A stretch of 64,000 nucleotides of DNA from an uncultured Bacilli bacterium. GTDB lineage: Bacteria; Bacillota_I; Bacilli_A; RF39; UBA660. Location of the stretch: contig CAKPNP010000001.1 of assembly GCA_934169415.1 (NCBI GenBank), forward strand, positions 25,854 to 89,853, read 5' to 3'. Positions 3,977-62,884 of the stretch are shown in pieces. The translations under genes and the position numbers were made by a program. Position 1 is the stretch's first letter; the number at the start of each line of letters is the position of its first letter. The notes beneath the pieces were generated by a model. It did not search any database. It saw only the letters and a program-made list of their open reading frames with translations, and was not told the origin of the DNA.

Positions 3977-4483
3977 ATGGAAAAAGCAAAAAGAGAACCA
4001 CGCCCAAAACAATTTGATGAAGAAGTAATCAATATTGGCCGCGTTACTAAAGTAACAAAAGGTGGTCGTCATTTCCGTTTTTCAGCTACTGTTGCAGTAG
4101 GAGATCGTAAAGGTCGCGTTGGAATAGGAACTGGTAAAGCTAACGAAGTACCAGATGCTATTAAAAAAGCTGTAGCAGCTGCTACAAAAAATGTAACTAA
4201 TGTTTCTATCGTAGATGGAACAATCCCACACGAAGCAATCGGAACAACAGGTGCTAGCAAAATTATGTTAAAACCTGCATGCGAAGGTACTGGAGTTAAA
4301 GCTGGTGGAGCAGTTCGTGCTGTACTAGAATTAGCTGGTGTTAAAAATATATTATCTAAATCACTTGGATCAAATACTAAAGTAAATATGGCTTATGCTA
4401 CTTTATCAGCATTAAAAAGTCAAAGAACTAAAGAAGAAGTTGCTCGCTTACGTGGTAAATCAGTAGAGGAGATAATGCAATAA
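3977..4483 (+). CDS. rpsE: 30S ribosomal protein S5
   Basis: 168 aa with [38 protein letters not shown], the S5 dsRBD signature. Its stop overlaps the rplO start as TAATG. Confidence 0.96.
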
Positions 4484-9693: not shown

Positions 9694-10047
9694 ATGTATA
9701 GAAAATTAGGTCGTACTAATAAACATAGAAGAAGCATGCTAGCTAACTTAACTAAAGATGTTATCATGAATGAAAAAATTACTACAACTGAAACAAGAGC
9801 CAAAGAAGCACGTAAATTCGTTGATAAAATGATTTCTTATGGTAAGGATGGATCTTTAGTAGCTAGAAGAAAAGCATTAGCTTTCTTACAAAACGATACA
9901 GAAGCAGTTAAAAAAGTATTTGACGTTTTAGCACCTCGTTATGCTAAACGTAATGGTGGATATACTAGAATAATTAAGCTTGATGAACGTCGTGGAGATG
10001 ATGCTTTAATGGTTATTTTAGAATTAGTTGAAGAGGATGCTAAATAG
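9694..10047 (+). CDS. rplQ: 50S ribosomal protein L17
   Basis: 117 aa with [20 protein letters not shown]17. Confidence 0.95.
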
Positions 10048-10058
10048 CATTCTTTTTT
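10031..10058 (+). repeat. Direct repeat copy 1 (28 bp, AAGAGGATGCTAAATAGCATTCTTTTTT), i.e. the rplQ 3' end plus terminator
   Basis: An identical 28-mer recurs at 11477-11504. The two copies bracket the two zinc-ribbon/bPH genes. Confidence 0.85.
10035..10058 (+). terminator. Rho-independent terminator of the ribosomal/rpoA operon
   Basis: Stem GGATGC/GCATTC (one G-U pair), loop TAAATA, then TTTTTT. It overlaps the rplQ stop codon. Confidence 0.6.
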
Positions 10059-11425: not shown

Positions 11426-11476
11426 TTATATAACTTTATAAAAAAGATATTTTAATAGTTATTTTAGAATTAATGT

Positions 11477-11504
11477 AAGAGGATGCTAAATAGCATTCTT
11501 TTTT
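11477..11504 (+). repeat. Direct repeat copy 2 (28 bp), a duplicate of the rplQ 3' end plus terminator hairpin
   Basis: Identical to 10031-10058, with one extra T in the U-tract. It probably also acts as a terminator for the paralog pair. Confidence 0.85.
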
Positions 11505-11560: not shown

Positions 11561-12499
11561 ATGGTGAATACTGTGGATTATAAAAAAATAGGAGAATTTA
11601 TACAAATAAGAAGAAAATATTTAGGGCTAACTCAAAGACAGTTAGCTGATAAATTAAAGGTAACAGACAAGGCAGTAAGTAAATGGGAAACTGGACTAGG
11701 TTGCCCTGATGTTTCTATATTAAGTAAACTATCAGATATATTATGCGTTAGTATAGGCGAAATATTAAATGGACAGTATAATGAAGATCTAAAAAATAAT
11801 TCTGATTTTATAAAAAATGCTGTGGATTATTCGAAGAAAATAACAGAAGAAAATTTTTATACAAAATTAAGAAAAATACTTTATATTATTTTAATAGTTA
11901 TTGTTTTATATATTTCTTTTATGGGAATAAAACAGTTCATATATATAAATGGCGAAACTGAATTTAAAAGCTCCACTAATGATTTAGCTTATATTGAATA
12001 TGAAAAATTAAAAGAAAATACAAAAATAATAAAAGAAAATAATTATTTTACAAATATAAATCCTGATTATTTGAATGAGTTAAATTATTTAGTTAAAAGA
12101 ATTGAATATATTAATTTATTAAATAGTAGAAAAGTAATAATTAAAAATACAGATTTATTAAATATAAAAAGTTTAATAATAAATATAAATTCATTTGATA
12201 ATAGACTTTTACACATATTGGAAATTATAGATAAAGATAATTATAAGTATTATGATTTAGGTATTTCTTATGTAGATAAAGATTATATATTTGATGTCGA
12301 TGGATATTTTGAGGAAATGAATATAAATAGTAATAATATGAAAAATTATTATTCAAGAAAATTATATGAATATAGTGAAATAGGAAATAGTAATACTACA
12401 TTAAAAGTTTATTATGAACAATTTGGTATAACATTATCTAAGTTAAATAAAATTTTAGAATTTATAATAGAAGTGGGTGATGCAAATGAAAATAATTAA
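11561..12499 (+). CDS. Membrane-anchored XRE-family HTH transcriptional regulator (HTH_3, single TM, extracytoplasmic domain)
   Basis: The N-terminus IRRKYLGLTQRQLADKLKVTDKAVSKWETG is a Cro/C1-type HTH. A TM helix (ILYIILIVIVLYISFMGI) follows, then a ~190-aa C-terminal domain. Confidence 0.75.
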   Translation: MVNTVDYKKIGEFIQIRRKYLGLTQRQLADKLKVTDKAVSKWETGLGCPDVSILSKLSDILCVSIGEILNGQYNEDLKNNSDFIKNAVDYSKKITEENFYTKLRKILYIILIVIVLYISFMGIKQFIYINGETEFKSSTNDLAYIEYEKLKENTKIIKENNYFTNINPDYLNELNYLVKRIEYINLLNSRKVIIKNTDLLNIKSLIININSFDNRLLHILEIIDKDNYKYYDLGISYVDKDYIFDVDGYFEEMNINSNNMKNYYSRKLYEYSEIGNSNTTLKVYYEQFGITLSKLNKILEFIIEVGDANENN

Positions 12500-18067: not shown

Positions 18068-18861
18068 AATTAGAAAATTTAAATTTAATTTATACTGATA
18101 ATGCAACTTATATTAAGCCTATTTTATCTGATATAAATATTAGTATTAAACCAGGTAAAATTAATGTATTAGTAGGTACTTATAAAAGTGGTAAGACTAC
18201 TATATTAAAATTAATAAGTGGTCTTATACTGCCAACTAGTGGCAAAATAAACATTAAAAACACAGAATTTCCATATGAAAAAATGGGTCTTATTTATAGT
18301 GAGAATGAATTCATTTTTAAAACTGTTTATGAGGAATTAAGTTATGCTATAAAACATTTAAATAAAAAAGTAACAGATATTCATAAGCATGTAATCTCTT
18401 CTTTAAATATGGTAGGATTAAATGAGAATTATTTAAATAGAAAAATTACTACATTAAGTGATTCTGAAAGAATTAAAATATCATTAGCTTTAGTTCTTGG
18501 AATAAATTCTAAAATTATTTTAATTGATGAAATAGATACTATATTAGATCCTAAATCATTAAATGAAATAATTAAATTATTAAATTTATTAAAAAAAAGA
18601 TATAATAAAACTATTGTTATAAGTACTAGAAATACTTCTTTAGCGCATATGATAGCTGATAATGTTATATTGTTAAATGATGGTAAAATAGTAGAATCAG
18701 GTAATAAATATGATATTTTTACTAAAGATTTATCTAAATATGGATTAAAAAATCCTAATATAATAGAATTTGAAAATATGGCTAGAAAAAAAGGTGTAAG
18801 ATTACTTTATAGAGATGAAATAAATGATTTAATGAAAGATATATATAGATATTGTAGGTGA
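18058..18861 (+). CDS. ABC-type ATPase, EcfA2-like (intact Walker A/B, degenerate signature)
   Basis: Walker A GTYKSGKTT and Walker B IILIDE are intact, but the signature reads LSDSE. It overlaps the preceding gene and precedes truA, as ecfA2 does in Firmicutes. Confidence 0.65.
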   Translation: MEIELENLNLIYTDNATYIKPILSDINISIKPGKINVLVGTYKSGKTTILKLISGLILPTSGKINIKNTEFPYEKMGLIYSENEFIFKTVYEELSYAIKHLNKKVTDIHKHVISSLNMVGLNENYLNRKITTLSDSERIKISLALVLGINSKIILIDEIDTILDPKSLNEIIKLLNLLKKRYNKTIVISTRNTSLAHMIADNVILLNDGKIVESGNKYDIFTKDLSKYGLKNPNIIEFENMARKKGVRLLYRDEINDLMKDIYRYCR

Positions 18862-36085: not shown

Positions 36086-36150
36086 AAAAATAAAAAAAGT
36101 CTATGTAATTACGTATTAGACTTTTTTGCACTATCCATTTTTTACAAAAC

Positions 36151-37424
36151 TTGTATGGCAATCGCTTAAAAATAATTAAAAAAAAGTGTAAAAAAAAGTA
36201 AATAAGTAACCAAATAATAGAAGAATAAGCTACAATTATACTAGGAGATGGTATAGATGAGTTTATTTGAACAATTTGAAGTATTAGAAGATCCAAGAGA
36301 TATAAGAGGAAAAAAATATAAATTAATAGATATTCTAATAATGACAATTTATGCAATACTATGTGGATAAACAGATTATGTTAATATTACATATTTTATG
36401 AAATTAAAAGAAGAATATTTCAATGAATTATTAGGATTAAAAAATGGGACACCATCACATGATTGTCTATCAGATTTATATGCTCAAATAGATAGTAAAA
36501 AGTTTATGGAAATCTTTATTGAATGGATAAGCGAGATAGTAAAAAATAAAACAGGTAAAAAATAAGTATCGACGGAAAAGCAGTAAAAAGTGCAACAAAT
36601 AAAATAGAAGGTGGAAATATACCATATATAGTTTCTGCCTTTTTAGGAGATATAGGTATTTCAATAGGCAAGTAAAAGTAGATGAAAAATCAAATGAAAT
36701 AACAGCAATACCAGAATTGATAGATTTAATAGATATTACAGGCGCAACTATAACAATAGATTCAATAGGAGTACAAGAAAAAAAAGTTAATAAAATAGTT
36801 GATAAAGGTGGGCATTATGCATTAAAAGTAAAAGAAAACCAAAGCAATTATTAAAAGATATAAAAAAGTATTTTAATAAACAATATAATTTATATGGTAA
36901 TAAAAATATAAAATATTATAAAACAATAGGAAAAGATCATGGAAGAAGTGAAATTAGAGAATATTTTTTATCATATGATGTGAGTTTAATAAGTGATAAG
37001 GAGAAGTGGAAAACGGTAAAAGCGATAGCATACACAAAAATCCAAACAATGATAAATGAAGAAATAACAATAACAGAAAATTATTACATTATTGATTATG
37101 AAATAGATATTAAAAGATTAGAAGAAGTAATAAGAGATCATTGGAATATTGAGTGTGGATTACATTGAAGATTAGATGTAATTCTAGATGAAGACCATTC
37201 AAGAAATAGAATTGGAAATAGTATCAATAATCTATCAATACTAAGAAAGATTGTATTTAATTTAGCAAGTTTAGATGATAGTTTTGGGAAAGTACCTTTA
37301 AAAAGAAAATTAACTAATTATGTATTAGATTTTTCAAAAATAGAAAGACTTATTTTTGAAGTAATACCAAATCTTAATGATTGTCAATAGATTTGTTTAA
37401 TAATTTTAAGCAATTGCCATACAA
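36151..37424 (+). mobile_element. ISAs1-family insertion sequence (~1.27 kb) with a 21-bp imperfect terminal inverted repeat
   Basis: The left inverted repeat TTGTATGGCAATCGCTTAAAA (36151-36171) matches the right inverted repeat TTTTAAGCAATTGCCATACAA (37404-37424) as a reverse complement, with 1 mismatch. The interior encodes an ISAs1/H-repeat transposase. Confidence 0.75.
36257..37390 (+). pseudogene. ISAs1-family (H-repeat-associated) transposase gene, inactivated by multiple stops and frameshifts
   Basis: The N-terminus MSLFEQFEVLEDPRDIRGKKYKLIDILIMTIYAILCG runs into a stop. Later fragments (VDEKSNEITAIPELIDLIDITGATITIDSIGVQ, RDHWNIECGLH) appear in different frames. Confidence 0.8.
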
Positions 37425-37508
37425 AACTTGATTAAAATTATCATATTTGCTATAATACATTTAGAAATTTTATGTTTATTTTTTATATAAAAAGGGGGGG
37501 AAGAAATT

Positions 37509-49761: not shown

Positions 49762-50448
49762 GCAAAAAAACGTGAAAGAGGTAAGATTTTTGCTAATTTA
49801 TTAGTAGAAGCTTCATTAAAAGATAATGTAAATGTCTTATTTATGAATTCTACAGATGCAGAAACTGTTAAATTATTTGCTAACACATATTTAGCTTTAA
49901 GAGTATCTTATTTTAATGAATTAGATACATATGCTGAATTAAAAGGTTTAAATACAAAAGATATAATAGATGGCATATCTTTAGATCCTAGAATTGGTAA
50001 TCATTATAATAACCCATCTTTTGGGTATGGTGGATATTGTTTACCTAAAGATACTAAACAATTATTAGCTAATTATAAAGATGTACCTGAAAATATGATA
50101 GAAGCAATAGTAAAAAGTAACGATACTAGAAAACATCATATTGCAGACATGATTATGAAAAGAAATCCTAAAGTTGTTGGAATATACAGATTAACTATGA
50201 AATCTAATTCTGATAATTTTAGAGCATCAGCTATACAAAGTATTATTGAAATTTTAAAAAGCAATAACGTTGATATAATGATATATGAACCAACACTTAC
50301 AGTTGATATATTTAATGGTGTAAAGGTTAACAATAATTTAGATGAATTCAAAAATATTAGTGATGTAATAGTTGCTAATAGATATGATAGTATTTTAGAT
50401 AATGTATCTGATAAAGTTTATACAAGAGATTTATTCAAAAGAGATTAA
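49762..50448 (+). pseudogene. ugd: UDP-glucose 6-dehydrogenase, 5'-truncated remnant lacking the NAD-binding N-terminal domain
   Basis: [23 protein letters not shown]...[27 protein letters not shown] is near-identical to the Ugd central and C-terminal domains. The reading frame opens only after a TAG at 49759, and the ~150 N-terminal residues are absent. Confidence 0.75.
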
Positions 50449-51942: not shown

Positions 51943-52386
51943 ATGAAAAAGATAATTAATTATATTTTATTAATACTATGGTTATTTTTGATATTTTATT
52001 TATCTAGTGAAACTGGTAGTGTATCAGGAGCTAATAGTAATACAATAATATATAACACTTTAAATGTTATATATGATATATTTAATATTAGTAAAGATAA
52101 TTTACTTAATACTGTGGATAAAATAGTGCCTATACTTAGAGAATGTATGCATTCTTTAGAATATTTTGTTTTAGCCATATTAATAATGAATTTGCTTAGA
52201 ATATATAATGTTAAAAGTAATTTATTATTTATAAGTGTAGGTTTATGTTTTGTATATTCTGCAACTGATGAGATACATCAATTATTTGTTGTAGGCAGAA
52301 CATTTGAGTATTTTGATATTTTTATGGATTTTGTAGGGGCATTAATTGGTAGTTTATTATATAAGGTCTGGTTCTTTGTCAAATAG
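51943..52386 (+). CDS. VanZ-like family membrane protein
   Basis: 147 aa with ILWLFLIFYLSSETGSVSG and four TM helices, the VanZ pattern. Its stop codon lies inside the ISL3 terminal repeat. Confidence 0.6.
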   Translation: MKKIINYILLILWLFLIFYLSSETGSVSGANSNTIIYNTLNVIYDIFNISKDNLLNTVDKIVPILRECMHSLEYFVLAILIMNLLRIYNVKSNLLFISVGLCFVYSATDEIHQLFVVGRTFEYFDIFMDFVGALIGSLLYKVWFFVK

Positions 52387-53812
52387 TGTTGGTAGACAAT
52401 AAATTTGATAAATGAAATAATTAGTGAGGGATGATGAAAATCATCCTTTTAAAATGCCTTTAATTAAGAAAATACGGGAAATAAAATGATCATATTTTCT
52501 ATATCCAAAAGCAATATGTTTAATACCTTTAATTAAATTATTGGTACCTTCTATAACGCCATTATTAATATCATATTTAAATAAGTTTTGTATATAATTA
52601 ATATTCTCTTTGTACAACTTTAAAGCTTGGATCATTTTAGGAGATAAATCCTTATGATGATTGAATACAATAGATTTAAATTTATCAAAATTTCTTTCTT
52701 TTAAAGAATTAATTAAACCTTGATAATATTCATATGTAGCTTTTAAAGTTGAATTGGTATTAATTAAATATTGAACAATTTCTTTTTGTGAAATATTTTT
52801 ATGAAAATGTTTAGAATAATGTTTTTCATCAGATAAATCATTTTCATTTTTAACAATTAACTTCCAATAATCCTTTAACTTATTATAGTTAGGGTTATCC
52901 TTTTTACATAAACTAACTCTAGTACAATTTAAAGCATTATAAACTTGTGTTACAATATGAAATCTATCAATAGAAATATCCGCATTTTTAAATAATTTTT
53001 TAGCTAAATAAATATAACCAGAATAGAAATCAGTAGAAATATGCTTAACTTTATTTCTTTGTTGTCTAGAGTATCTTCTAAAATATTTTTCTAAATCTTT
53101 AGATTTTCTAGAATCATTAATATCAAAAAGATTACCATTATCATTATCAGTAATGATAAATGCCATTTTACCTTTAGTATCACAAGTAGCTTTAAATTCA
53201 TCCCAATTCATAGAAGTAGGTAATGTAGGATGTCTTAACACGTTATGAGAAGAAATATCATTTAATATACGATCGATTACAGAAACAGAAACATCCATTC
53301 TTTTAGCAATATCCTTTTCAGATTGTTTTTGCATAAGTTCTAATTTTATTTGAAGATTAGTATTATTAGAAATATTTTTATACTTATCAACAAGATTAGT
53401 TTCAGCAATAAAAGTATTATGACAATGTTTACAAAAGAAACGTTGTTTATGTAAAATTAATCTAGTTAAGCAATTATTTTGTTTAGGAATTCTAATACTG
53501 CAGTTCTTTCTAAAATCCCACTTAATAATATCATTGGTAGAGTTATTAATAATATTACAATGGGGACATGATTGTGGAATATAGGTTAAAATACCTTCAA
53601 CAATTTTATATTTCTTGTCATTTATAACCTTTTCTTTAATTTCTGTAATAATATGTATATTTTCGTCTTTAATATTTAATAAATTTAGTATATAATTATT
53701 TGTAGACATAAGTTTGTTCCTTTTAATTTTTTTTGGTTAATTACATTGTATCAAACTTATGTCTTTTATTAAATAAAAAAGTATTAGTGAAATATATTCA
53801 CCAACACTATTT
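52381..53812 (-). mobile_element. ISL3-family insertion sequence (~1.43 kb)
   Basis: The terminal inverted repeats are AAATAGTGTTGGT (52381-52393) and ACCAACACTATTT (53800-53812). It encodes an intact ISL3 transposase. Confidence 0.7.
52441..53709 (-). CDS. ISL3-family transposase (intact)
   Basis: 422 aa with an N-terminal CPHC...C..C zinc finger and a DDE_Tnp_ISL3 core (ISTDFYSGY, NNGVIEGTNNLIKGIKHIAFGYRKYDHF). Confidence 0.85.
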   Translation of the reverse strand: MSTNNYILNLLNIKDENIHIITEIKEKVINDKKYKIVEGILTYIPQSCPHCNIINNSTNDIIKWDFRKNCSIRIPKQNNCLTRLILHKQRFFCKHCHNTFIAETNLVDKYKNISNNTNLQIKLELMQKQSEKDIAKRMDVSVSVIDRILNDISSHNVLRHPTLPTSMNWDEFKATCDTKGKMAFIITDNDNGNLFDINDSRKSKDLEKYFRRYSRQQRNKVKHISTDFYSGYIYLAKKLFKNADISIDRFHIVTQVYNALNCTRVSLCKKDNPNYNKLKDYWKLIVKNENDLSDEKHYSKHFHKNISQKEIVQYLINTNSTLKATYEYYQGLINSLKERNFDKFKSIVFNHHKDLSPKMIQALKLYKENINYIQNLFKYDINNGVIEGTNNLIKGIKHIAFGYRKYDHFISRIFLIKGILKG

Positions 53813-53926
53813 ATAATACAACCCTAAAAAACAAGAAAATTAATTCTTGTTTTTATTTGCCAAAATTATAAACAACATTAAGCAAATTAATTTAAGAAAA
53901 CTAAAAATAAATTAGAAAATAATTTT

Positions 53927-53999
53927 GTTGTGCCAAGTTGGCGACAGCTAGAGCTTAAATATAAGTGTCATAGTGTAATAATTTTTACATACATAAAAG
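53927..53999 (+). repeat. Island-flanking direct repeat, copy 1 (~73 bp; 36-bp perfect core 53957-53992)
   Basis: GTGCCAAGTTGGCG...AAATATAAGTGTCATAGTGTAATAATTTTTACATAC recurs at 60649-60710, with an 11-nt indel and 2 substitutions. Confidence 0.85.
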
Positions 54000-54258
54000 A
54001 CTACAATGTATATGAAAAGTTTCAAAAGCAAAATCCAAAATTTAAAAAGAAGTATACTTTATGGGTTATTTATACTGATTTGAGATTAAAATATGAATAT
54101 GAGAGAAATATGGTTCTTTGATAATTATATTTCAACAATAAAATGAAATTATTTATATAGAAATAAAAATGTAATATTAAGCATATTTCTCATACATTAT
54201 GTATGTAAATATGTTTTTTTATGTTATAATCTTTATAGAGAGTGTAGGTGGTATTGAT

Positions 54259-55134
54259 ATGAAAAAGAAGCAAAATTTAATTCTTCAACCAATATTAAAA
54301 TGGGCTGGAGGAAAAAGACAATTGTTAACACAATTAGAAAAATATTTTCCTAAACATTTTAAATGTTATTATGAACCTTTTGTTGGTGGGGGAGCTGTAT
54401 TATTTCATTTACAACCTAAAAAAGCTGTAATAAATGATTATAATGAAGATTTAATTAATTTATATAAATGTATTAAGGATAATTTAGAAGAGTTAATAGA
54501 AAAATTAAAATATTATGAAACAAAAAATGATTCCGATAGTTTTTATGAAATAAGAGGCATAGATAGGACTGATGAATATAAAAAATGGACCCCTGTAGAA
54601 AAAGCTGCGAGATTGATTTATTTAAATAGGACTTGCTACAATGGATTATTTAGAATGAATAGTGCTGGTCAATTTAATTCTCCTTATGGCTCATATAAAA
54701 ATCCATGTATATGTAATGAACCAGTTCTTAGAGCTATGAATAAGTATTTTAATGAAAATGATATCGAGTTTAGAGCGGGTGATTTTGAAGAAGCGTGTAA
54801 AGATGCAACAAAAGGCTCATTTGTTTATTTGGATCCGCCATATGATCAGTATGATGAACAATTAAACTTTGTTGGATATACTAAAGATGGATTTACACGT
54901 GTGGATCAAACAAGATTAAAAAAAATATGTGATAAACTTATTGAAAAAGGATGTTATGTCATGATTAGTAATTCCAAAACACCATTTATTATTGATTTGT
55001 ATAGTGACTCAACTAAATATATTACTTACACTATAAACACTGTTAATGCAAGAAGAAATATAAATAGTAATGCTAAAAAAAGAGGAGAAGTAGAGGAGGT
55101 TTTGATTATTGGAAAATTGGATATCAAAGAATAA
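54259..55134 (+). CDS. Dam-family (D12 class, alpha-group) N6-adenine DNA methyltransferase
   Basis: LKWAGGKRQLL, YYEPFVGGGAV (motif I) and VYLDPPY (motif IV). The ATG at 54259 has RBS GGTGG. Confidence 0.85.
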   Translation: MKKKQNLILQPILKWAGGKRQLLTQLEKYFPKHFKCYYEPFVGGGAVLFHLQPKKAVINDYNEDLINLYKCIKDNLEELIEKLKYYETKNDSDSFYEIRGIDRTDEYKKWTPVEKAARLIYLNRTCYNGLFRMNSAGQFNSPYGSYKNPCICNEPVLRAMNKYFNENDIEFRAGDFEEACKDATKGSFVYLDPPYDQYDEQLNFVGYTKDGFTRVDQTRLKKICDKLIEKGCYVMISNSKTPFIIDLYSDSTKYITYTINTVNARRNINSNAKKRGEVEEVLIIGKLDIKE

Positions 55135-56410
55135 TAAAGTGTGGAACTTTTTGTTTGAAAAATATAATATTGTTGATGAAGTAAATAAAAATGGGTTCTT
55201 TGAGATAGCTGCTGATCAGATAAAAGAAGCTGGAAGAGAACCACGATTAATGACTAAGTTTGATAGTAGTGAAAACTTACCTAAAATCTTTACAGATAAT
55301 AAATTAGCAATACTTCCTATTAGAAGAGGCTCTTACATAATAGGTAGATTTGAAAATTATCAAGATGTTGAATTAAATAATAATATAGATGTTGTTACAA
55401 AGTATTTACCAGATTATATTACAACTATCGATTATAGTAATATAACTAGTGAGGCTGTTTCGTTAAACTCGGCTTATGTTTCCGGAATGATCGAAGATAT
55501 TGTCGGTGAACCTGTTATTCCGACAATTCAAGGAAGAATGGGAACAGGAGAATTTGATTATCAAATTTCTTTAAATGATAAAACAAATTTTAATGTAAAT
55601 GTTCAAAATTCTCAAATGGAAATAGATGGAAGTTATGAAGGAATCACAAAGTTTGTTATATTGGAAGCAAAAAATCATTATATGAAAGATTTCATTATAA
55701 GACAATTATACTATCCATATAAAGTATGGAAAAAGGTTACTAATAAAGAAATTATTCCAGTGATGCTTATAAAACATGATAATATTTTCAACTTTTATAT
55801 ATATTCTTTTACAGATGATAATAATTATAATAGTATCAATTTAAAAAAAATAAAAAGATTTATATTAGATGAGGCATATAATCCAATAGAATTTGAAGAT
55901 ATTATAGATGTTATGAATAATGTTAAATATGTAGAAGAAACGGATCAAAATCCTTTTCCACAGGCTAATTCATTTTATAGAGTATTGGATTTAATTAATG
56001 AACTAAATAGTCAAGAATTATCACCAAGTGAAATTGCAGAATTATATGAATTTGATATTAGACAAGCGAACTATTATCTAGCAGCAGGTCAATACTTAGG
56101 ATTTATAGAAAAAGATAAGAATTATAAATTAACTGATTATGGTAAAAGAATAATGAAAATGAACCATAAGAATAAAAATCTAGAGATAATTAATGCTATT
56201 TTATCTCATAAGCCATTTTATTTTGCATTAGAACAATACATAAAATACTTTGATTTTAAACCAAATAAAATAGCTGATATTATTTATGATTATAGAGCTG
56301 AAATCAATTCTAGAGAGACTGCTATTAGAAGGACTAGTACAGTAATAGCATGGATAAAATGGATCATAGAGTTAACTACTACAACAGAGCAAAACCCTTT
56401 TGAAAAATGA
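55109..56410 (+). CDS. Putative restriction endonuclease partner of the Dam-family methyltransferase; hypothetical
   Basis: 433 aa. Its start overlaps the methyltransferase gene end by 26 nt. There is a candidate PD-(D/E)xK arrangement (GEFDYQI ... VILEAKNH) and a probable C-terminal wHTH. No confident family assignment. Confidence 0.45.
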   Translation: MENWISKNNKVWNFLFEKYNIVDEVNKNGFFEIAADQIKEAGREPRLMTKFDSSENLPKIFTDNKLAILPIRRGSYIIGRFENYQDVELNNNIDVVTKYLPDYITTIDYSNITSEAVSLNSAYVSGMIEDIVGEPVIPTIQGRMGTGEFDYQISLNDKTNFNVNVQNSQMEIDGSYEGITKFVILEAKNHYMKDFIIRQLYYPYKVWKKVTNKEIIPVMLIKHDNIFNFYIYSFTDDNNYNSINLKKIKRFILDEAYNPIEFEDIIDVMNNVKYVEETDQNPFPQANSFYRVLDLINELNSQELSPSEIAELYEFDIRQANYYLAAGQYLGFIEKDKNYKLTDYGKRIMKMNHKNKNLEIINAILSHKPFYFALEQYIKYFDFKPNKIADIIYDYRAEINSRETAIRRTSTVIAWIKWIIELTTTTEQNPFEK

Positions 56411-56524
56411 GACCGTTGAGGTCTTTTTTTATAATAATTATAAAATATTTTTAAAATATTTTATAATTATTATTGACTTTTAAATAAAAATGTAGTATTT
56501 TATGGTTGAAAACGGAGGTATATT

Positions 56525-56746
56525 ATGAATGTAAAGCAAGATAATTTCAAGAGAATTGCTGAAAATAGAACTAATAAAATAATAGATTTAATTTCAAAAC
56601 TTAGTAATTTAAGAAATAATACATCATTTTATGAATATACAGATGAACAAATGGAAGCAATATTTGATGCTATACAAAAAGAACTTGATAAACAAAAAAA
56701 AGAATTTAGAAAGGATAAAAAGAAAACGAAAAGATTTCAATTGTAG
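56525..56746 (+). CDS. Small basic hypothetical protein (73 aa)
   Basis: RBS GGAGGT. K/R-rich helical. It immediately precedes the GHKL ATPase gene. Confidence 0.4.
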   Translation: MNVKQDNFKRIAENRTNKIIDLISKLSNLRNNTSFYEYTDEQMEAIFDAIQKELDKQKKEFRKDKKKTKRFQL

Positions 56747-56760
56747 TAGGAGGTAGTAGT

Positions 56761-58689
56761 ATGAGCATGTTTGATAGTTTTAGAGCAAAACCTAAATGGA
56801 AATTTATTGAAAATGGATATGGAAATGAATCTAGTTTAGATTCAACAGATGTTGAAACTTTTAAAAAGGATCCAATAGCATCATTAGCAAGGGAATCATG
56901 CCAAAATTCTATTGATGCAAGAAGAAATGATGAACCTGTAAAAATTGTTTTTAAGTCTTTTTTAATTAAGACAAATAGTATACCTGGAATTAAAGAATTA
57001 AAAGAAGAATTGATTGCATGTAGAGATTCACATGAACAAAATACAAAATATTATAAAAAGTTTGATTCAATGATATCATGTGTTGAAAGAGAAGAAATAT
57101 TATGCTTAAGAATTAGTGATTTTAATACAAAAGGATTAGAAGGAGTAGCAACAAATGATAGAAATAAAGCGTTTTATTATTTAACTAAAGGGAATGGTCT
57201 TACAACTAAGATTAGCTCGAATAGTGGTGGCTCTAAAGGAATAGGTAAATTTGCTTCATTTGTTGCAAGTGATCTTCAAACTGTTTTCTATGCAACTTTA
57301 AATGAAAACAATGAAAAGGGATATATTGGTATTTCTAAACTTGCATCTAGATTGTTAAATCAAGAAACTGGTATGTGTACGACGGGGTATGGATATTTCT
57401 GTAGGTCTGAAAAGGTACTTCCAATTCTTGAAACACTAGTATTAGATAAGTATTTTGTTCGAGATAAGTATGGAACAGACATTTATGTTATTGGATTTAG
57501 AGCAGAAGAAAATTGGAGAGCAGCTATAATTTCAAAAATACTAGATAGTTTTATGTGTGCAATACAATATGGAGATTTAGAAGTAGAAGTTGATGGTATA
57601 GAAATTAATAAAGAAAAATTACAAAGTATAGTATATAATGATTCTTATATAATTCCTAGTGAAAAGAAAAATATATTGGCACAATATGTTCTTTTAAATA
57701 ATGAATTTGTTCACACAAAGACTGTAGATATTAAAGGATACGGTAACGTCAAAATATATTTAAAAGATTTTGATAGGCAGAATGAAAATTTTGCAACAAA
57801 TAAATGTGTTATGGTTAGATATCCATATATGAAAATTACAGATTTCAAAATACCATTTGCAAAACCTTGTTCAGCATTATGTATTATAGAAAAAAATGAG
57901 TTAAATAGTATGTTAAGAGAAGTTGAAAATCCACAACATACAGATTGGGAACCAAATAGAATAACTGATGATACTGAATTAAGAAGAGAAATAAAGAGAG
58001 TAATTAAAGAAATAAAAGATCAAGTTCAAATATTTGCTGATGAAGTTTTATTAAGTGGAGATAAAGAAGAAATTGATATAGATGGTGCAGGAGATTATTT
58101 AGCAGATTATAATTTTGGCAATGATGATATTCCTTTATCTGGAGAAGAAGTTACTGAAAAGCCTAAAGTTGTAAATTCTAGAAGGGCAATTCTTAAAAAT
58201 AATATAGGTGATAATTCGGAAGAAGGAGATAATTCCTCAGTTTATGATATTGGCAGTCACCAAGACAATGGTGATGACTCATCTGCACCAAGCGGAAATA
58301 ATCTAGGAACTGGTTCTGAAATTCATGAGGGTGATGAAACCAGCGGTTATAATCAAGAAGGTGATGAAGAAGTTCTTCATTCAGTACAATTAAGTGGAAT
58401 GAAAGTAAAAATTTTACTTTTAGATAAAGAAAATGGTAAATACTTGATAGTTTTTAATTCTATCTATGATGAAAGTAATTGTGATTTAGAATTATATTAT
58501 TTAGATGATAAAGGAGGAAGATATATTCCTAATGTTACATCAGCTTATATTAATGGTAATGAAGTAAAAATAGATAAAAATAGAATCAAGAATTTTAGTA
58601 TAGAAAATGGCATTAGATATAAAATTGAAATGAATACAGATTTAGATGATTTATATGCTTGTGAGGTGAGAATATATGCAAATAGGTAA
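56761..58689 (+). CDS. GHKL-superfamily (MutL/MORC/Hsp90-like Bergerat fold) ATPase domain protein, 642 aa, with an acidic linker and a C-terminal beta-rich domain
   Basis: It has an N-box-like SLARESCQNSIDA (aa 41-53), a G1-like RISDFNTKGLEG (aa 117-128) and a Gly-rich G2-like SNSGGSKGIGKFASF (aa 153-167). RBS GGAGG. Confidence 0.6.
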   Translation: MSMFDSFRAKPKWKFIENGYGNESSLDSTDVETFKKDPIASLARESCQNSIDARRNDEPVKIVFKSFLIKTNSIPGIKELKEELIACRDSHEQNTKYYKKFDSMISCVEREEILCLRISDFNTKGLEGVATNDRNKAFYYLTKGNGLTTKISSNSGGSKGIGKFASFVASDLQTVFYATLNENNEKGYIGISKLASRLLNQETGMCTTGYGYFCRSEKVLPILETLVLDKYFVRDKYGTDIYVIGFRAEENWRAAIISKILDSFMCAIQYGDLEVEVDGIEINKEKLQSIVYNDSYIIPSEKKNILAQYVLLNNEFVHTKTVDIKGYGNVKIYLKDFDRQNENFATNKCVMVRYPYMKITDFKIPFAKPCSALCIIEKNELNSMLREVENPQHTDWEPNRITDDTELRREIKRVIKEIKDQVQIFADEVLLSGDKEEIDIDGAGDYLADYNFGNDDIPLSGEEVTEKPKVVNSRRAILKNNIGDNSEEGDNSSVYDIGSHQDNGDDSSAPSGNNLGTGSEIHEGDETSGYNQEGDEEVLHSVQLSGMKVKILLLDKENGKYLIVFNSIYDESNCDLELYYLDDKGGRYIPNVTSAYINGNEVKIDKNRIKNFSIENGIRYKIEMNTDLDDLYACEVRIYANR

Positions 58690-59599
58690 AAGAGGATATC
58701 CTTACCCAATATTAAATAATGCTACAAATTACAATTGTTATAAAAAATCTACATATTCATTAGAATATGAGAATGAAGAAGACCACAATAATTTCACATT
58801 GAAAAATGTTAGAATTGAAACGAATAGCGAAGAATTAAAGTGTTTAATAGATAAAAAATTAGTTAAAGCAATGATAGTAATTGAATCATCATCAACTATA
58901 TTCAAATATACTGAAGAAATATCTACAACACCCAAAAACATAATAATACCAATAGGTAATTTAAGTGGAAAAGTAGAAATTTCAAGTATTGTGTATGCAA
59001 CAGAAAACATAGTTGGCTTTTCTAGTAATGATTTTACTGAGGATTTTGATAGTTATAAATTTAACATTGAAAAGTATTGCCCAATTGCAATTGATGACGG
59101 ATATATTGTTAAAGTAGAATATAATGATTTTGATGATAAAAAAGTTTCATCGATATTTTCAGTTGTTGAAAGTTATGATTCTGAATTAAAATATATGAAA
59201 GTAATAAATGGCGATAGGAAAATTAAAATTGAATTACCAGAAGATGAATTTAAGAAATTTGATGCATTAAATGGTCAAAGTACATTTTATAATCTCTTCT
59301 TTTCAATAATAATTATTCCAGCATTATCATCATGTTTAAAAGATTTTCAATCAGAAATAAAGTATCAAGAAAAAACAATAGAAGATATTTCAGATTCACA
59401 TAGTTGGTTTTTATCTATTCAAAATGCATACAAGAAAATCTATAACAAGGATATTAAAAATGAAGAATTTATCAATCTTAATGCACTTGAATTTAGTCAA
59501 ACTATATTCGATTATTGTTCAGTTAAATCAATTAAAGATTTTTATGACATAATAAAAAGAAAGACTGATGCTAGTGAGGAGGATGAAGAAAATGTTTAA
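58676..59599 (+). CDS. Hypothetical protein (307 aa), co-operonic with the GHKL ATPase
   Basis: Its start overlaps the upstream stop, suggesting translational coupling. No recognisable family. Confidence 0.5.
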   Translation: MQIGKRGYPYPILNNATNYNCYKKSTYSLEYENEEDHNNFTLKNVRIETNSEELKCLIDKKLVKAMIVIESSSTIFKYTEEISTTPKNIIIPIGNLSGKVEISSIVYATENIVGFSSNDFTEDFDSYKFNIEKYCPIAIDDGYIVKVEYNDFDDKKVSSIFSVVESYDSELKYMKVINGDRKIKIELPEDEFKKFDALNGQSTFYNLFFSIIIIPALSSCLKDFQSEIKYQEKTIEDISDSHSWFLSIQNAYKKIYNKDIKNEEFINLNALEFSQTIFDYCSVKSIKDFYDIIKRKTDASEEDEENV

Positions 59600-60410
59600 C
59601 AAAATAATTAATATTTCTTTTATAACTGATGATGCTTTAAATACATTATATAGTAATCCTCAAAAGGTAACAGAACTAATAAGAAATAATCCATTTGAAT
59701 CATCGTGGTTAAATGAATTGATAAATAAAGAACCATTCGAGTTAAGAAAAATAAAAATTGAAGATTTTGAACTTAAAATATCACCAAATGGTAATTATAA
59801 AGAAGTTGAATTTGATAATGCTGTATGTTTGTATGAACATTTGAAAGATATTCCTAGATATATATTAATCGATGAAAGATTCTGGGTATGGCTTGAGTTA
59901 GGTAAATTTTATAGAGTTGCAGTTCAGTCGATGCCAGTAAAAAAAGATACTGCATTTGAAGGACAATGGATATTCACTAGAGGGAATAAACGTGGACTTT
60001 GGTTTAATGTTTTTTCAAGAAGTTATTTTTGGGTAGAATTTACTGTTGATGAAAATACTGAGAATAGATACGAATTAACAAAATTTGCTTTTGAAAAAAT
60101 AGAAAGAATTCGTCACTTAACATTTGATAGTAAATATAGAAATATTGTATTTAACAGTTTAAAAGCAGAAAAAATGCTATATGATAAATATGCTAATGAT
60201 CCAGAATATATGGAAACATTTAAAAAGTGTGAATCTGGAATTGGAAGTTATAATATATATACTTATTTAAGAAAAGCATTATCATTGTATGGAAGCGTAA
60301 GAATATTAGATTTTATGAGTGATGAAGATATATTTAATATTGCTTATCAAAAATTAGAAAATGCATTTTTTGAAGTTCATAAAGGCAACATTGAATATTT
60401 AATGAAATAA
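59592..60410 (+). CDS. Hypothetical protein (~273 aa), last gene of the GHKL operon
   Basis: RBS GAGGAGG lies 8 nt upstream of ATG 59592, overlapping the upstream gene end. It is Trp/Phe-rich (FWVWLEL, RGLWFNVF). No recognisable family. Confidence 0.5.
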   Translation: MFNKIINISFITDDALNTLYSNPQKVTELIRNNPFESSWLNELINKEPFELRKIKIEDFELKISPNGNYKEVEFDNAVCLYEHLKDIPRYILIDERFWVWLELGKFYRVAVQSMPVKKDTAFEGQWIFTRGNKRGLWFNVFSRSYFWVEFTVDENTENRYELTKFAFEKIERIRHLTFDSKYRNIVFNSLKAEKMLYDKYANDPEYMETFKKCESGIGSYNIYTYLRKALSLYGSVRILDFMSDEDIFNIAYQKLENAFFEVHKGNIEYLMK

Positions 60411-60648
60411 GATATTTAAAAGTATAAAAACTATGACTAAATATTTTAAAAGACAATGTAACAGATATTATGATGGTGCACCAAAGAATCCAGCTGAGAA
60501 TTATGTAAGACATAAATTAGGAACTTATAATCTCTCGGAATTCAAATAAATAATCGAGAAAATTAAATCTCGATTTTTATTTTTAAAAATATCTACAATA
60601 TTTACTACATTATTTAATACAATTAAGAATAATACGGAAGATAATTTT

Positions 60649-60710
60649 GTGTGCCAAGTTGGCGCCTAAATATAAGTGTCATAGTGTAATAATTTTTACA
60701 TACCTAAAAG
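60649..60710 (+). repeat. Island-flanking direct repeat, copy 2 (~62 bp; 36-bp perfect core 60668-60703)
   Basis: It matches 53927-53999. Confidence 0.85.
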
Positions 60711-60873
60711 AACATAATTAAAATTTTACATACCAAACTACATACCATAATATTTAAAATGTATTAATAATTTTTAAAATATTACAAAAATAAAACCTAG
60801 TATTTACTAGGATTTATCAATATTTATCAATGATTTAACAGTTCTTAAAAATATATTTTAGCGGCCCCCTGAA

Positions 60874-60905
60874 GAGAGCATTTAACCGTGCTCTTATCTT
60901 TTGTT
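60874..60905 (+). terminator. Hairpin plus U-tract (terminator-like) inside a GC-rich non-coding patch
   Basis: AGAGAGCA-TTTAACCG-TGCTCTT followed by ATCTTTTGTT. Confidence 0.4.
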
Positions 60906-60994
60906 CCCATTTTATAAGGGCTTGCGAGGCGTCGGTTTTGCTAAAATAATTTTAGGTACAATTTAGGTACAAAAAAATTGATTTAATAATAGTT

Positions 60995-61034
60995 CATTGA
61001 GAAAAAGTGCCGAAAGTGGCAAAAATTCTCAATG
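60995..61034. promoter_or_regulatory. Nested inverted repeat (candidate operator/structured element) upstream of the XRE-ImmA module
   Basis: CATTGAGAA...TTCTCAATG forms a 9-bp stem enclosing a smaller TGCC-GAAAGT-GGCA hairpin. A tandem ATTTAGGTACA x2 lies just upstream (60953-60974). Confidence 0.35.
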
Positions 61035-61162
61035 GATTTTTAATTTTAACAATGATGCGGATAAAATATAAGTGGTCAATATGAATGAAAAATATTATTC
61101 CACAAGCGGTAGGATATAGTTAGTATAAGATCATGGTATAATATATTATGAGGAGATGTCTT

Positions 61163-61363
61163 ATGGAAAAGAAAGAAGAAATAATTAGTAATAAAATTAA
61201 ATGTAAAAAATGCGGAGATATCATAGAATCAAAAAGTACTAATGATCTAAAAAGATGTTCTTGTGGAGCTGTTGCAGTTGACGGAGGCACTGAATATTTG
61301 AAGAGAATTGGTAATGAAAATGATTATATAGAATTGTCTATTAATAAAGATAATAATAAATAG
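61163..61363 (+). CDS. Small zinc-ribbon protein; hypothetical
   Basis: RBS AGGAGA lies 6 nt before ATG 61163. CKKCG...CSCG forms two Cys pairs. Confidence 0.5.
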   Translation: MEKKEEIISNKIKCKKCGDIIESKSTNDLKRCSCGAVAVDGGTEYLKRIGNENDYIELSINKDNNK

Positions 61364-61458
61364 TTATTTACATAAATAATAGAAAATAATAAATATAATT
61401 CAAAAATGTTGAAAAATTCAACATTTTTGAATATAATAATAATGATTTATACGTTAGG

Positions 61459-61809
61459 GTGGCGTATATGAAGGAGTTAAATTACAAAAAAATAGGTGAA
61501 AGATTAAGAAAACTTAGAAAATATATGGGATTAACGCAAGAACAAGTGGCCGAAATCGTAAGTTTAGGTCGAGATGCAATATTGAGAATCGAAAAAGGTG
61601 ATCGAAAGATTGATTTACAAGAATTAATGAATTTTTCAAAATTATATAATATAAGTATGGATGAATTGACAGCGGAAGAACATATTGTAAGTAGTAACGA
61701 TATAGCATTTGCAAGGGTTTTTAATGAATTAAGTGAAAAAGATAAAAAAGAAATTATTAGTTTAATCGAATATAAAAATATTTTGAAGTCTAAATATAAT
61801 GATAATTAA
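61459..61809 (+). CDS. XRE-family HTH repressor (ImmR-like); probable start ATG 61468
   Basis: LRKYMGLTQEQVAEIVSLGRDAILRIEKGDRKIDLQEL is an HTH_3 domain. It precedes an ImmA/IrrE peptidase gene. Confidence 0.8.
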   Translation: MAYMKELNYKKIGERLRKLRKYMGLTQEQVAEIVSLGRDAILRIEKGDRKIDLQELMNFSKLYNISMDELTAEEHIVSSNDIAFARVFNELSEKDKKEIISLIEYKNILKSKYNDN

Positions 61810-62212
61810 TATAACACCAGAAGAATTGGCAAACAACGAATTAGAAAAATTAAGAAATAAATATAAACTAACTTTTCCAATAGATCCATTTAGAATTCTT
61901 CGTGATGCTGGCGTTTTTGTTGTATTAAAAGATTTTGAAAATTTATATGGCATTATCGTTAATGATATAGATAATTGCACAATTGTAGGAATTAATTCAA
62001 ATAGTGGATGCCAAAGACAAAAATTTATAGCAGCACATGAATATTGTCATTTTATAAAAGATTTAAATAAAGAACAGGGAACAACAGATTATATTAAGTG
62101 TTTGAAAGCTTCAAATAAAACAATAGAAAAATATGCAAATGCTTTTGCAGGTTACTTGCTTATGCCAACAAATGAATTAAATGTTATTTGTGAACAATAC
62201 AAAAATAAATAA
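61799..62212 (+). CDS. ImmA/IrrE-family zinc metallopeptidase, terminated prematurely by an in-frame TAA
   Basis: The HExxH motif AAHEYCHFI is present. The ORF stops at 62210-62212, but the same frame continues with ImmA-like C-terminal sequence (IAEYFGVSFSSCLNRIAYDLNLI). Confidence 0.7.
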   Translation: MIINITPEELANNELEKLRNKYKLTFPIDPFRILRDAGVFVVLKDFENLYGIIVNDIDNCTIVGINSNSGCQRQKFIAAHEYCHFIKDLNKEQGTTDYIKCLKASNKTIEKYANAFAGYLLMPTNELNVICEQYKNK

Positions 62213-62299
62213 GGATTTATTGATTTCGAAAGTATAACGATTATAGCTGAATACTTTGGTGTTAGTTTTAGCTCTTGTTTAAATAGAATAGCTTATGAT

Positions 62300-62884
62300 T
62301 TGAATTTAATAGAAGGAGATATTTCTTCAGAATCTTTAAGAAAAAGAATGAAAAAATATGATATACCATCAAAAAGACAAGAACTTATAGAAAATAAGAT
62401 TGATAGCACGTTGTTATCAAATGTTGTTAACTCAATGAATTTTTTAATGGCTGATATTAATAAATATACTGGTCAAAAATTTTTACAAAACTATATTTAT
62501 AATGATAATAAATTTGACTGTGAATTACAATTATTTATGGAAAACATAGATGATTATGATGTAGGAAAATACATAGAGCAAGTTGTACGTTTTACGTATA
62601 GGTTTATAGTTATTAACCATTTTAGAGACGGAAATGGTCGTATATCAATGGCTATATTAAATTGGCTTTTGAGTAAGAAAAAAATACCACCGATATATAT
62701 AGATTCAAAGCGCAAAAAAGAATATTTAGAAGCACTTTCAATGATAGATTTGAAAGGAGACTTTGTACCATTTATAATGCTTATTGAAAAAAGGATAATT
62801 CATACTATGATTGAATTACATAAATATCTATTTGTTGATGAAATAGATGAGAAAATAATTAGTGATGTAGTGCCAGTTAATTAA
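62300..62884 (+). CDS. Fic/Doc-family protein (same reading frame as the upstream ImmA gene)
   Basis: HFRDGNGRISMAILNWLL matches the Fic motif HPFx(D/E)GNGR. The first Met after the stop is at 62300, and the upstream in-frame sequence is ImmA-like. Confidence 0.7.
   Translation: MNLIEGDISSESLRKRMKKYDIPSKRQELIENKIDSTLLSNVVNSMNFLMADINKYTGQKFLQNYIYNDNKFDCELQLFMENIDDYDVGKYIEQVVRFTYRFIVINHFRDGNGRISMAILNWLLSKKKIPPIYIDSKRKKEYLEALSMIDLKGDFVPFIMLIEKRIIHTMIELHKYLFVDEIDEKIISDVVPVN

Follow-up and report, generated by a model that had tools for sequence, protein, structure and literature searches.

Does a pair of direct repeats around a cluster of defence genes record the way in which these genes arrived at their site? 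The question is raised by a stretch of 64,000 nucleotides from an uncultured Bacilli bacterium (GTDB lineage RF39, UBA660; contig CAKPNP010000001.1 of assembly GCA_934169415.1, positions 25,854 to 89,853 of the forward strand), which we call the window and in whose coordinates all positions are given unless another locus is named. An earlier note, made from the letters of this DNA alone, had read the repeats as the borders of a cassette that was inserted at a repeated site or by a mechanism that generates repeats. Exactly six genes do lie between the two copies, as the note had counted: a Dam-family methylase, its putative restriction partner, a gene for a 73-aa protein (p73), and the genes A, B and C of the candidate system catalogued as PDC-M33. 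The explanation that we favour, and to which we assign a probability of about one half, is that this block is a cargo island without an integrase of its own, one member of a tandem array, that a shorter motif beyond its right end (motif X) is the likely junction, and that the repeats are end sequences internal to the element.

End repeats and the segment that carries them

The two copies of the repeat lie in the same orientation on the + strand. The earlier note was right about their existence but not about their length, put there at ~65 bp, as BLASTN and nhmmer extend the homology over ~175 nt (53826-54000 on the left and 60549-60712 on the right; ~76-80% identity, E values of 1e-27 to 1e-31). 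Each copy is composed of a terminator-like hairpin, an AT-rich stretch of ~70 nt, the palindrome GCCAAGTTGGC and a perfect 36-nt core, AAATATAAGTGTCATAGTGTAATAATTTTTACATAC, which holds the tandem motif AAGTGTCAT/AGTGTAAT. The hairpin, palindrome and core fall at 53829-53852, 53932-53942 and 53957-53992 in the left copy, and at 60552-60575 (here the terminator of the M33C gene), 60653-60663 and 60668-60703 in the right copy, and the hairpin stems of the two carry compensatory changes (ACAAGAA...TTCTTGT on the left, ATCGAGA...TCTCGAT on the right). The perfect core had been correctly recognised: its two exact copies in the window compare with a chance expectation of 0 (100 shuffles). The indel of 11 nt noticed between the copies corresponds to 10-11 nt, ACAGCTAGAGC, present only in the left copy and immediately left of the core. 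After the right core the motif (TTT)TACATACC stands three times in direct orientation (60694-60747), and the left copy has it once. What seems to be a third, weak relative of the palindrome-plus-core module stands further to the right, at 60993-61095: the long hairpin CATTGAGAA...GTGCCGAAAGTGGC...TTCTCAATG with AAATATAAGTGGTCAATATGAAT after it, some 60 nt upstream of the promoter of the DUF7695 gene.

Searches for the exact core gave no match in 185,579 species genomes and none in IMG/VR, and two matches among metagenome contigs, which became our main comparators. No further clear copy of the repeat was found in the window or in 0.89 Mb of DNA from 51 related loci of metagenome-assembled genomes (MAGs). 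Rfam returned nothing at gathering thresholds over the whole window, and around both repeats permissive thresholds gave chance-level matches only; the window also contains no tRNA or tmRNA as an integration target. Two further candidates were rejected. A hammerhead ribozyme at CUGAAGAG was ruled out by eye, as its stem is not followed by GAAA, and a contig of 6,741 bp with the core at both ends (L005; the other loci compared are likewise given L numbers) represents an assembly break at the repeat, with a 30-nt overlap, and offers no evidence of a circle.

L013 and L071-L080 contain a segment of 7.05 kb, with the six genes and both repeats, that is 98.8% identical to 53829-60877 of the window and lies amid entirely different neighbours. 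On the left of this second type of context lie an XRE gene, a gene for a 619-aa methylase, HNH, GmrSD and an IS1182-like insertion sequence (IS), and on the right a 151-aa gene and a UvrD helicase, followed by Cas9 or other genes. Past UvrD, at ~17000-21900 of L071-L080, some of these loci carry Cas9 and Cas1 and others a 241-aa gene, LysR and NUDIX, so that the neighbourhood is a variable defence region. At a greater distance, L081 shares the coding block alone (54257-60443, at 86% nucleotide identity, with M33A at 87%) amid unrelated non-coding flanks, and this version of the block is part of an element whose tyrosine integrase is intact. The claim of a discrete and horizontally mobile defence cassette is supported by both observations, and the 7.05-kb segment has passed, in recent times, from genome to genome among uncultured gut Bacilli.

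In L083-L087 (M33A 53%) the same six genes stand in the same order beside Abi2, AbiU2, Hachiman and a serine recombinase, the order being retained at 98%, 87% and 53% M33A identity. In L088-L092 (M33A 45%) and the viral contig L082 (38%) p73, A, B, C and a Dam-type methylase are still linked, and the endonuclease is replaced or absent. No comparable flanking repeat was found in L081, L083 or L088, and it follows that the repeats are peculiar to the non-coding flanks of one sub-lineage. Even within that sub-lineage the right repeat is dispensable, because its core is absent from eight of the ten contexts of the second type. It was lost there through an indel of 222 bp (60597-60818) that comprises the right core, three copies of TACATACC and a small hairpin and is bounded by AATATTTA microhomology; a miniature inverted-repeat transposable element (MITE) was ruled out for this segment, which has no terminal inverted repeats and only the 8-nt microhomology. 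Since both copies of the repeat travel inside the segment shared between contexts they are not insertion scars, and the comparison indicates that they were not made by insertion at this site.

Motif X and the competing explanations

In the contexts compared, homology never breaks within the 36-nt core, and in three independent comparisons it ends right after CCCC(C)TGAAGAG. Window and L071 part at 60877. The contigs L012, L095 and L096 depart from the window where X adjoins the right half of the left repeat, the sequence there being CCCCCTGAAGAG, a hairpin, TTTTTGTTT and AAAGGGG directly before ATAATTTTGCTGTGCC..., and the breakpoint of L012 lies 40 nt left of the core. Finally, L098 and L012 share homology of 79%, which runs through a conserved gene of 471/477 aa and stops at the last base of CCCCTGAAGAG; past this point the two carry different islands. 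The X element of the window occupies 60865-60925 (+) and consists of CCCCCTGAAGAG (60865-60876), a terminator-like hairpin (60874-60895), TTTTGTT and AAGGG. In L098 a first X (CCCCCTGAAGAGAGC, at 11574) and a second (CCCCTTGAAGAGAGC, at 18223), recognised with one mismatch, flank an island of 6.6 kb that contains a DpnII system and an integrase fragment of 83 aa, which matches the C-terminal end of the L081 integrase at 58% identity, and the second X stands just before ordinary metabolic genes.

X is rare in this AT-rich DNA: when one mismatch is tolerated, its 11-mer is expected 0.1 times per window. Five instances, either exact or with a single substitution, stand in the X context within the 1.5 Mb of DNA that was fetched, and all of them fall at these junctions; the other matches, with up to two substitutions, lie in unrelated contexts; a pattern for the X architecture found no match in IMG/VR. 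About 78 nt after X the window has two 11-nt direct repeats, TTTAGGTACAA (60951-60973, +), L098 has the same paired repeats at the same distance, TTAGGTAC(C)A, and L071 has two TTAGGCA at the corresponding place. One possibility is that these repeats serve the next element as arm-type sites or as operators. Other than in L098, X is single at each locus; for this reason, and as tblastn found no integrase-like recombinase, an integron or attC array was ruled out.

Taken together, these breakpoints make X the likely junction and a candidate attachment or crossover site. We propose that X would act as the att core for a family of tyrosine-integrase islands stacked in series, and that the six-gene block would be an integrase-less member or remnant of that array. 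Its right junction would survive at 60865-60876, and its left X, seen in the L012-type contigs, would have given way to other sequence when the DNA of the window was rearranged beside the ISL3 element on that side. The repeats would then lie inside the element, the 36-nt core with AAGTGTCAT/AGTGTAAT serving as an arm-type recombinase site or an operator at both ends. The distance of the tandem AAGTGTCAT/AGTGTAAT motif from X, ~90-105 nt in L012 and ~165 nt in the window, is of interest here, as lambda-type integrases bind arm sites at such distances. A terminator that no gene precedes forms part of the left copy, whose perfect core stands in flanks that have diverged by 23%; this copy may have arisen when the left arm of the element recombined with the homologous tail of a relative upstream, an IS being inserted afterwards. 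In the circle predicted by this model, the right arm ending in ...TTTTAGCGGCCCCCTGAAGAG would be joined to CCCATTTTGGGCTCATTTTTG...ATAATTTTGCTGTGCC. Integrase-less islands in tandem arrays that share one attachment site are known, as in the cis-mobilisable elements beside ICESt1 and ICESt3 and in SCC composite islands. The likeness to these arrays lies in cargo-only DNA delimited by a short core common to integrase-bearing relatives, with elements in series; the difference is that a single X is left in the window and that neither an excision product nor an empty site was seen.

Several points weigh against this explanation. No empty site (a single X without the island) was recovered and no circular junction was seen: a search of species genomes with the neighbouring CotH gene as anchor gave 51 loci, all at most 58% identical and with non-syntenic flanks, and look-ups of the exact proteins of flanking genes returned occupied or truncated sites only. 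No recombinase was detected in or beside the block, nor anywhere else in the window (tblastn at E <= 1 in the window, L007, L071 and L076), so that mobility would need help in trans or else the block is a fixed remnant. X at the left end of the block is found only in L012, L095 and L096, which are too short to reach the right end, and the left and right X of this block were never seen on one molecule. The short repeats close to either end of the L098 island differ (TTAGGTACCA against TACCCATCA), which implies that a shared arm motif at both ends is not general in the island family. The repeat copies fold no better than shuffled sequence (z = -1.2 and -0.9), which gives no indication of a structural role. 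A different IS adjoins the block at the same position (53829) in both long contexts, and this could mean IS-assisted movement.

Among the other explanations, the one that survives best is that the core is a duplicated promoter-operator module, kept intact because a regulator binds the tandem AAGTGTCAT/AGTGTAAT. The right copy has TTTACA-18-TAAAAT (10/12 matches), beginning in the core, and the core is the same in all five sampled copies while the adjoining palindrome varies. Related hairpin-plus-AAGTGTCAT motifs with different self-complementary palindromes stand upstream of the 477-aa gene of L012 and downstream of GmrSD in L071. On the other hand, of the two copies it is the left that precedes the genes, and in it no promoter is called on the + strand, no gene lies between the right copy and X, and the right copy can be lost. 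The variant in L012, moreover, is part of a strong terminator hairpin: at 4290-4385 (-) of that contig, between a 110-aa ORF and the 477-aa gene, two inverted 14-nt arms, TGTCATAGTGTCAT, surround a smaller hairpin and are followed by a T-run, reusing the core motif of the repeat (-35 kcal/mol, z = -7.3). We regard this function as possible, if doubtful, for the core, and it does not exclude that the block is an integrase-less island bounded by X, with which it is compatible.

The proposal of the earlier note, that the 36-nt core is an attL/attR crossover or an insertion-made duplication around a cassette of 6.7 kb, has in its favour that two direct copies bracket exactly six genes and that a perfect core lies in diverged flanks, with the homology longer leftward, as in islands that target the 3' ends of genes. 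The comparison of contexts nevertheless speaks against it. Both copies move together into a different context and take along 128 nt on the left and 174 nt on the right, and the breaks lie at CCCC(C)TGAAGAG instead of in the core, as in L012, which diverges to the left of it. The right copy is often missing, the block at 86% identity has unrelated non-coding flanks, and the 86%, 53% and 45% versions are without a comparable flanking repeat. No recombinase was detected, and the exact core is absent from the species genomes and IMG/VR. We consequently think it improbable that the repeats are an insertion site or were generated by insertion.

A similarly low credence attaches to the suggestion that the repeat belongs to a small dispersed intergenic family (REP- or MITE-like) that happens to flank the island. 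Hairpin-plus-tail variants with compensatory palindromes (GCCAAGTTGGC, GAGTAGGGTACTC and GGGGTACCCC) do occur at 4-5 intergenic positions in related defence islands, but all of these are at the boundaries of defence modules and not genome-wide, the clear copies number two in 64 kb and none in the related MAG DNA, and neither terminal inverted repeats nor target duplications accompany them. That the flanking ISs carried the block, with repeats and X uninvolved, is very improbable: the ISL3 element of the window, which has no target duplication, and the IS1182-like element (L071 7056-7075, perfect 20-nt inverted repeats) both have an end no more than 5 nt from 53829, but an IS stands on one side only, the two belong to different families, X is the right boundary in both contexts, and the L012-type contigs have no IS. 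The ends of both ISs at 53829 lie just before the terminator-like hairpin of the left repeat, which may be a hotspot or a coincidence.

A restriction-modification pair and the PDC-M33 module

The first two of the six genes (54259-56410) form a type II restriction-modification pair in which the endonuclease is putative. A Dam-family (D12 class) N6-adenine DNA methyltransferase is encoded at 54259-55134 (+), with a possible upstream ATG at 54199, and is recognised by Pfam PF02086 (5.2e-65, 220 bits against 22), by TIGR00571 dam (290 bits against a cutoff of 114.85) and by PADLOC MTase_II (3e-97). The gene that overlaps it (55109-56410, +) codes for a protein of DUF6996-DUF6997-DUF7226 architecture according to Pfam, and the REBASE-derived PADLOC model REase_II PDLC03513 matches this protein at full length (residues 8-421, 2.9e-84), which makes it a putative type II restriction endonuclease. 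The description of a Dam-type methylase with a restriction partner holds, in consequence, at the level of gene calls in Pfam, TIGR00571 and PADLOC. The pair resembles DpnII/MboI-type systems of the Dam family in that a dam-subfamily D12 methylase overlaps a restriction-enzyme-like gene, and it differs from them in its endonuclease, which carries DUF6996/6997/7226 and is not of the DpnII family; a true DpnII system sits in the sister island of L098 and not in this block. Our search of the literature on DUF6996, DUF6997 and DUF7226 found no paper. GATC is rarer in the window than base composition predicts (72 observed, 133 expected), a scarcity that would fit long exposure to GATC-directed restriction and bears only indirectly on GATC as the sequence recognised by the pair.

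The remaining four genes are encoded on the same strand. p73 (56525-56746) is followed by PDC-M33A (56761-58689; PADLOC 8.8e-138), a GHKL-type ATPase of 642 aa, by PDC-M33B (58676-59599; PADLOC 3.8e-52) and by PDC-M33C (59592-60410; PADLOC 6.6e-29), which contains DUF6339 (Pfam PF19866, 1.8e-25). The A, B and C models of PADLOC match near full length and in the catalogued order, and their genes are adjacent on one strand with overlapping reading frames (58676-58689, and 59568/59592-59599 depending on the start of M33C). Between the restriction gene and p73, at 56425-56490, a near-perfect AT-rich palindrome stands next to a TTGACT box; it may terminate transcription in both directions or serve the M33 operon as its operator. 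A search of the literature on PDC-M33 and DUF6339 yielded no paper; by its catalogue entry PDC-M33 is a candidate anti-phage system only.

The identification of M33A as a GHKL ATPase, proposed in the earlier note, proved right despite the fact that no sequence model recognises it as an ATPase (Pfam, with no HATPase_c, NCBIfam and the PDB sequences). Its Bergerat motifs (E45/N49/D52/A53; D120/G125/G128; G156-G157-S158-K159-G160-x-G162-K163) are invariant in 35 homologues. In the AlphaFold model (pLDDT 73) the protein has N-terminal and middle domains like those of Hsp90 and TopoVI-B, a disordered linker (~residues 434-537) and a C-terminal beta domain, and Foldseek against the PDB returned Hsp90, TRAP1 and Topo VI-B with E values of 5.8e-8 to 2e-5 and probabilities of 0.99-1.0, though the TM-scores are low (0.24-0.31 query-normalised, up to 0.40 target-normalised). 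The predicted structure and the invariant motifs together assign M33A to the GHKL fold. A further invariant motif, E389-N-P-Q-H393 (E389-x3-H393), recalls the paraMORC2 GHKL ATPases described by Iyer, Abhiman and Aravind (2008, PMC2292703), which have an ExxxH motif, occur mainly in Gram-positives and are found in restriction-modification operons. The likeness to the MORC and paraMORC proteins of that paper extends to a GHKL ATPase with a second domain beside a methylase and an endonuclease and to a sporadic, mobile distribution; the differences are that this block has no superfamily II helicase, that M33A has no Pfam HATPase_c domain and that in structure it matches Hsp90, TRAP1 and Topo VI-B best, and not MutL. 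By analogy of motif and neighbourhood, membership of M33A in paraMORC2 is a lead only. M33B is modelled as a beta-sandwich plus a helical domain (pLDDT 78) with no recognisable enzymatic fold, and Foldseek gave no match for it below E 0.01.

The small protein p73 is outside the PADLOC definition of PDC-M33 but appears to belong with M33A, M33B and M33C. It precedes these three genes in every gut-Bacilli and viral locus examined (among them L082 906-1067, L083 9781-9936 and L088 7240-7419, besides the window), and its identity is 62-93% (tblastn) in loci where M33A reaches only 38-87%. It is better conserved than M33A, M33B and M33C as a whole, which range over 29-92% in the same loci. We therefore take p73 to be probably a fourth component of PDC-M33.

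Whether the six genes act as one system is a separate matter. A Dam-type methylase is linked to M33 in most of the gut-Bacilli and viral loci examined. The methylase-endonuclease pair is found without M33 genes on an Enterococcus faecium plasmid, the annotation of which was inspected, and in two more plasmid matches of the endonuclease a DNA adenine methylase is also listed beneath the match. The genes A, B and C (DUF6339) stand alone, beside AbiG, on Lactococcus lactis plasmids. Because the pair on the one hand and A, B and C on the other each occur alone on plasmids, the six genes are two separable modules, inherited together in this lineage. BLAST of the island against phages and plasmids gave a match for the methylase only. 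A bolder synthesis would be that Dam methylase, endonuclease-like partner, p73 and GHKL genes A, B and C constitute one methylation-aware system of paraMORC type and, at the same time, that X and the internal end repeats define an undescribed family of integrase-less cassettes, mobilised in trans by tyrosine integrases of sister islands and stacked at one terminator-associated site in uncultured gut Bacilli; that both parts hold together seems to us unlikely.

Surroundings of the block and meaning of the island

The elements on either side had been correctly described. Directly left of the shared block lies an ISL3-family IS (52370-53823, -), with a transposase at 52441-53709 (Pfam DDE_Tnp_ISL3 6.9e-43) between inverted repeats of 24 nt (52370-52393 and 53800-53823). 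No 8-bp target-site duplication is visible in its flanks, and its left inverted repeat provides the last codons of a VanZ gene; these two features suggest an IS-associated deletion or rearrangement and not a simple insertion. On the right the XRE-ImmA module, recognised by Pfam, is accompanied by two further genes, so that 61163-62884 (+) contains DUF7695 (61163-61363), XRE (61468-61809), an ImmA/CapP-like metallopeptidase (61799-62212) and Fic (62300-62884). DUF7695 is a zinc-ribbon protein, the best PADLOC matches of the XRE protein and the ImmA-like peptidase are the defence regulators CapH (3.6e-11) and CapP (1.2e-17), and the short Fic matches PDC-S04/SoFic. This region is probably a remnant of a second integrated element, and it could be a Fic defence module under damage-responsive regulation.

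The rest of the window is chromosomal, with cell-envelope polysaccharide genes and, judged by ORF layout only, a start laid out like a ribosomal-protein operon. The same sequence is found in human-gut metagenomes and in the MAG GCA_964316445.1. Of the species genomes reached by the scan with CotH as anchor, the nearest bear the labels uncultured Bacilli, Tenericutes or Mycoplasmatota. Just past the operon-like cluster at the start of the window a 59-nt direct repeat (10000-10058 and 11446-11504, 90% identical), which has the terminator-like hairpin GAGGATGCTAAATAGCATTCTTTTTT at its end, follows two ORFs 1.4 kb apart. Within the polysaccharide locus 47-nt inverted repeats (77% complementary) enclose ~1.2 kb of short ORF fragments at 36137-37438, one of which, MSLFEQFEVLEDPRDIRGKKYKL, we take to resemble the N-terminus of an ISAs1-family transposase, and the whole looks like a decayed IS. 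At the edge of the polysaccharide cluster a UDP-glucose dehydrogenase ORF of 201 aa (49843-50448), with central and C-terminal domains only, is probably a truncated pseudogene. The composition of the island, which had been put forward as a check of its foreign origin, was computed and proved uninformative, because both GC content and codon usage fall inside the window's own range: GC is 26.1% and third-position GC (GC3) 13.7%, against a background of 25.5% and 11.5%, and the codon-usage distance of the island ranks 26th of 52 blocks of equal size.

The island is of an ordinary kind, assembled from parts of known kinds (a restriction-modification pair, a catalogued candidate GHKL system and an array of integrative islands), and the current understanding of defence islands is unchanged by these findings. 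Its value is more specific. Direct repeats around a gene cluster need not mark an insertion, and here the comparison of contexts shifted the likely junction to a shorter motif. The annotation of PDC-M33 becomes firmer: its A protein is a GHKL (paraMORC-like) ATPase, a small conserved protein is added as a probable fourth component, and in gut Bacilli there is a recurrent link to Dam-type restriction-modification. For the defence islands of a lineage without cultured members, motif X is a candidate attachment motif that can be tested.

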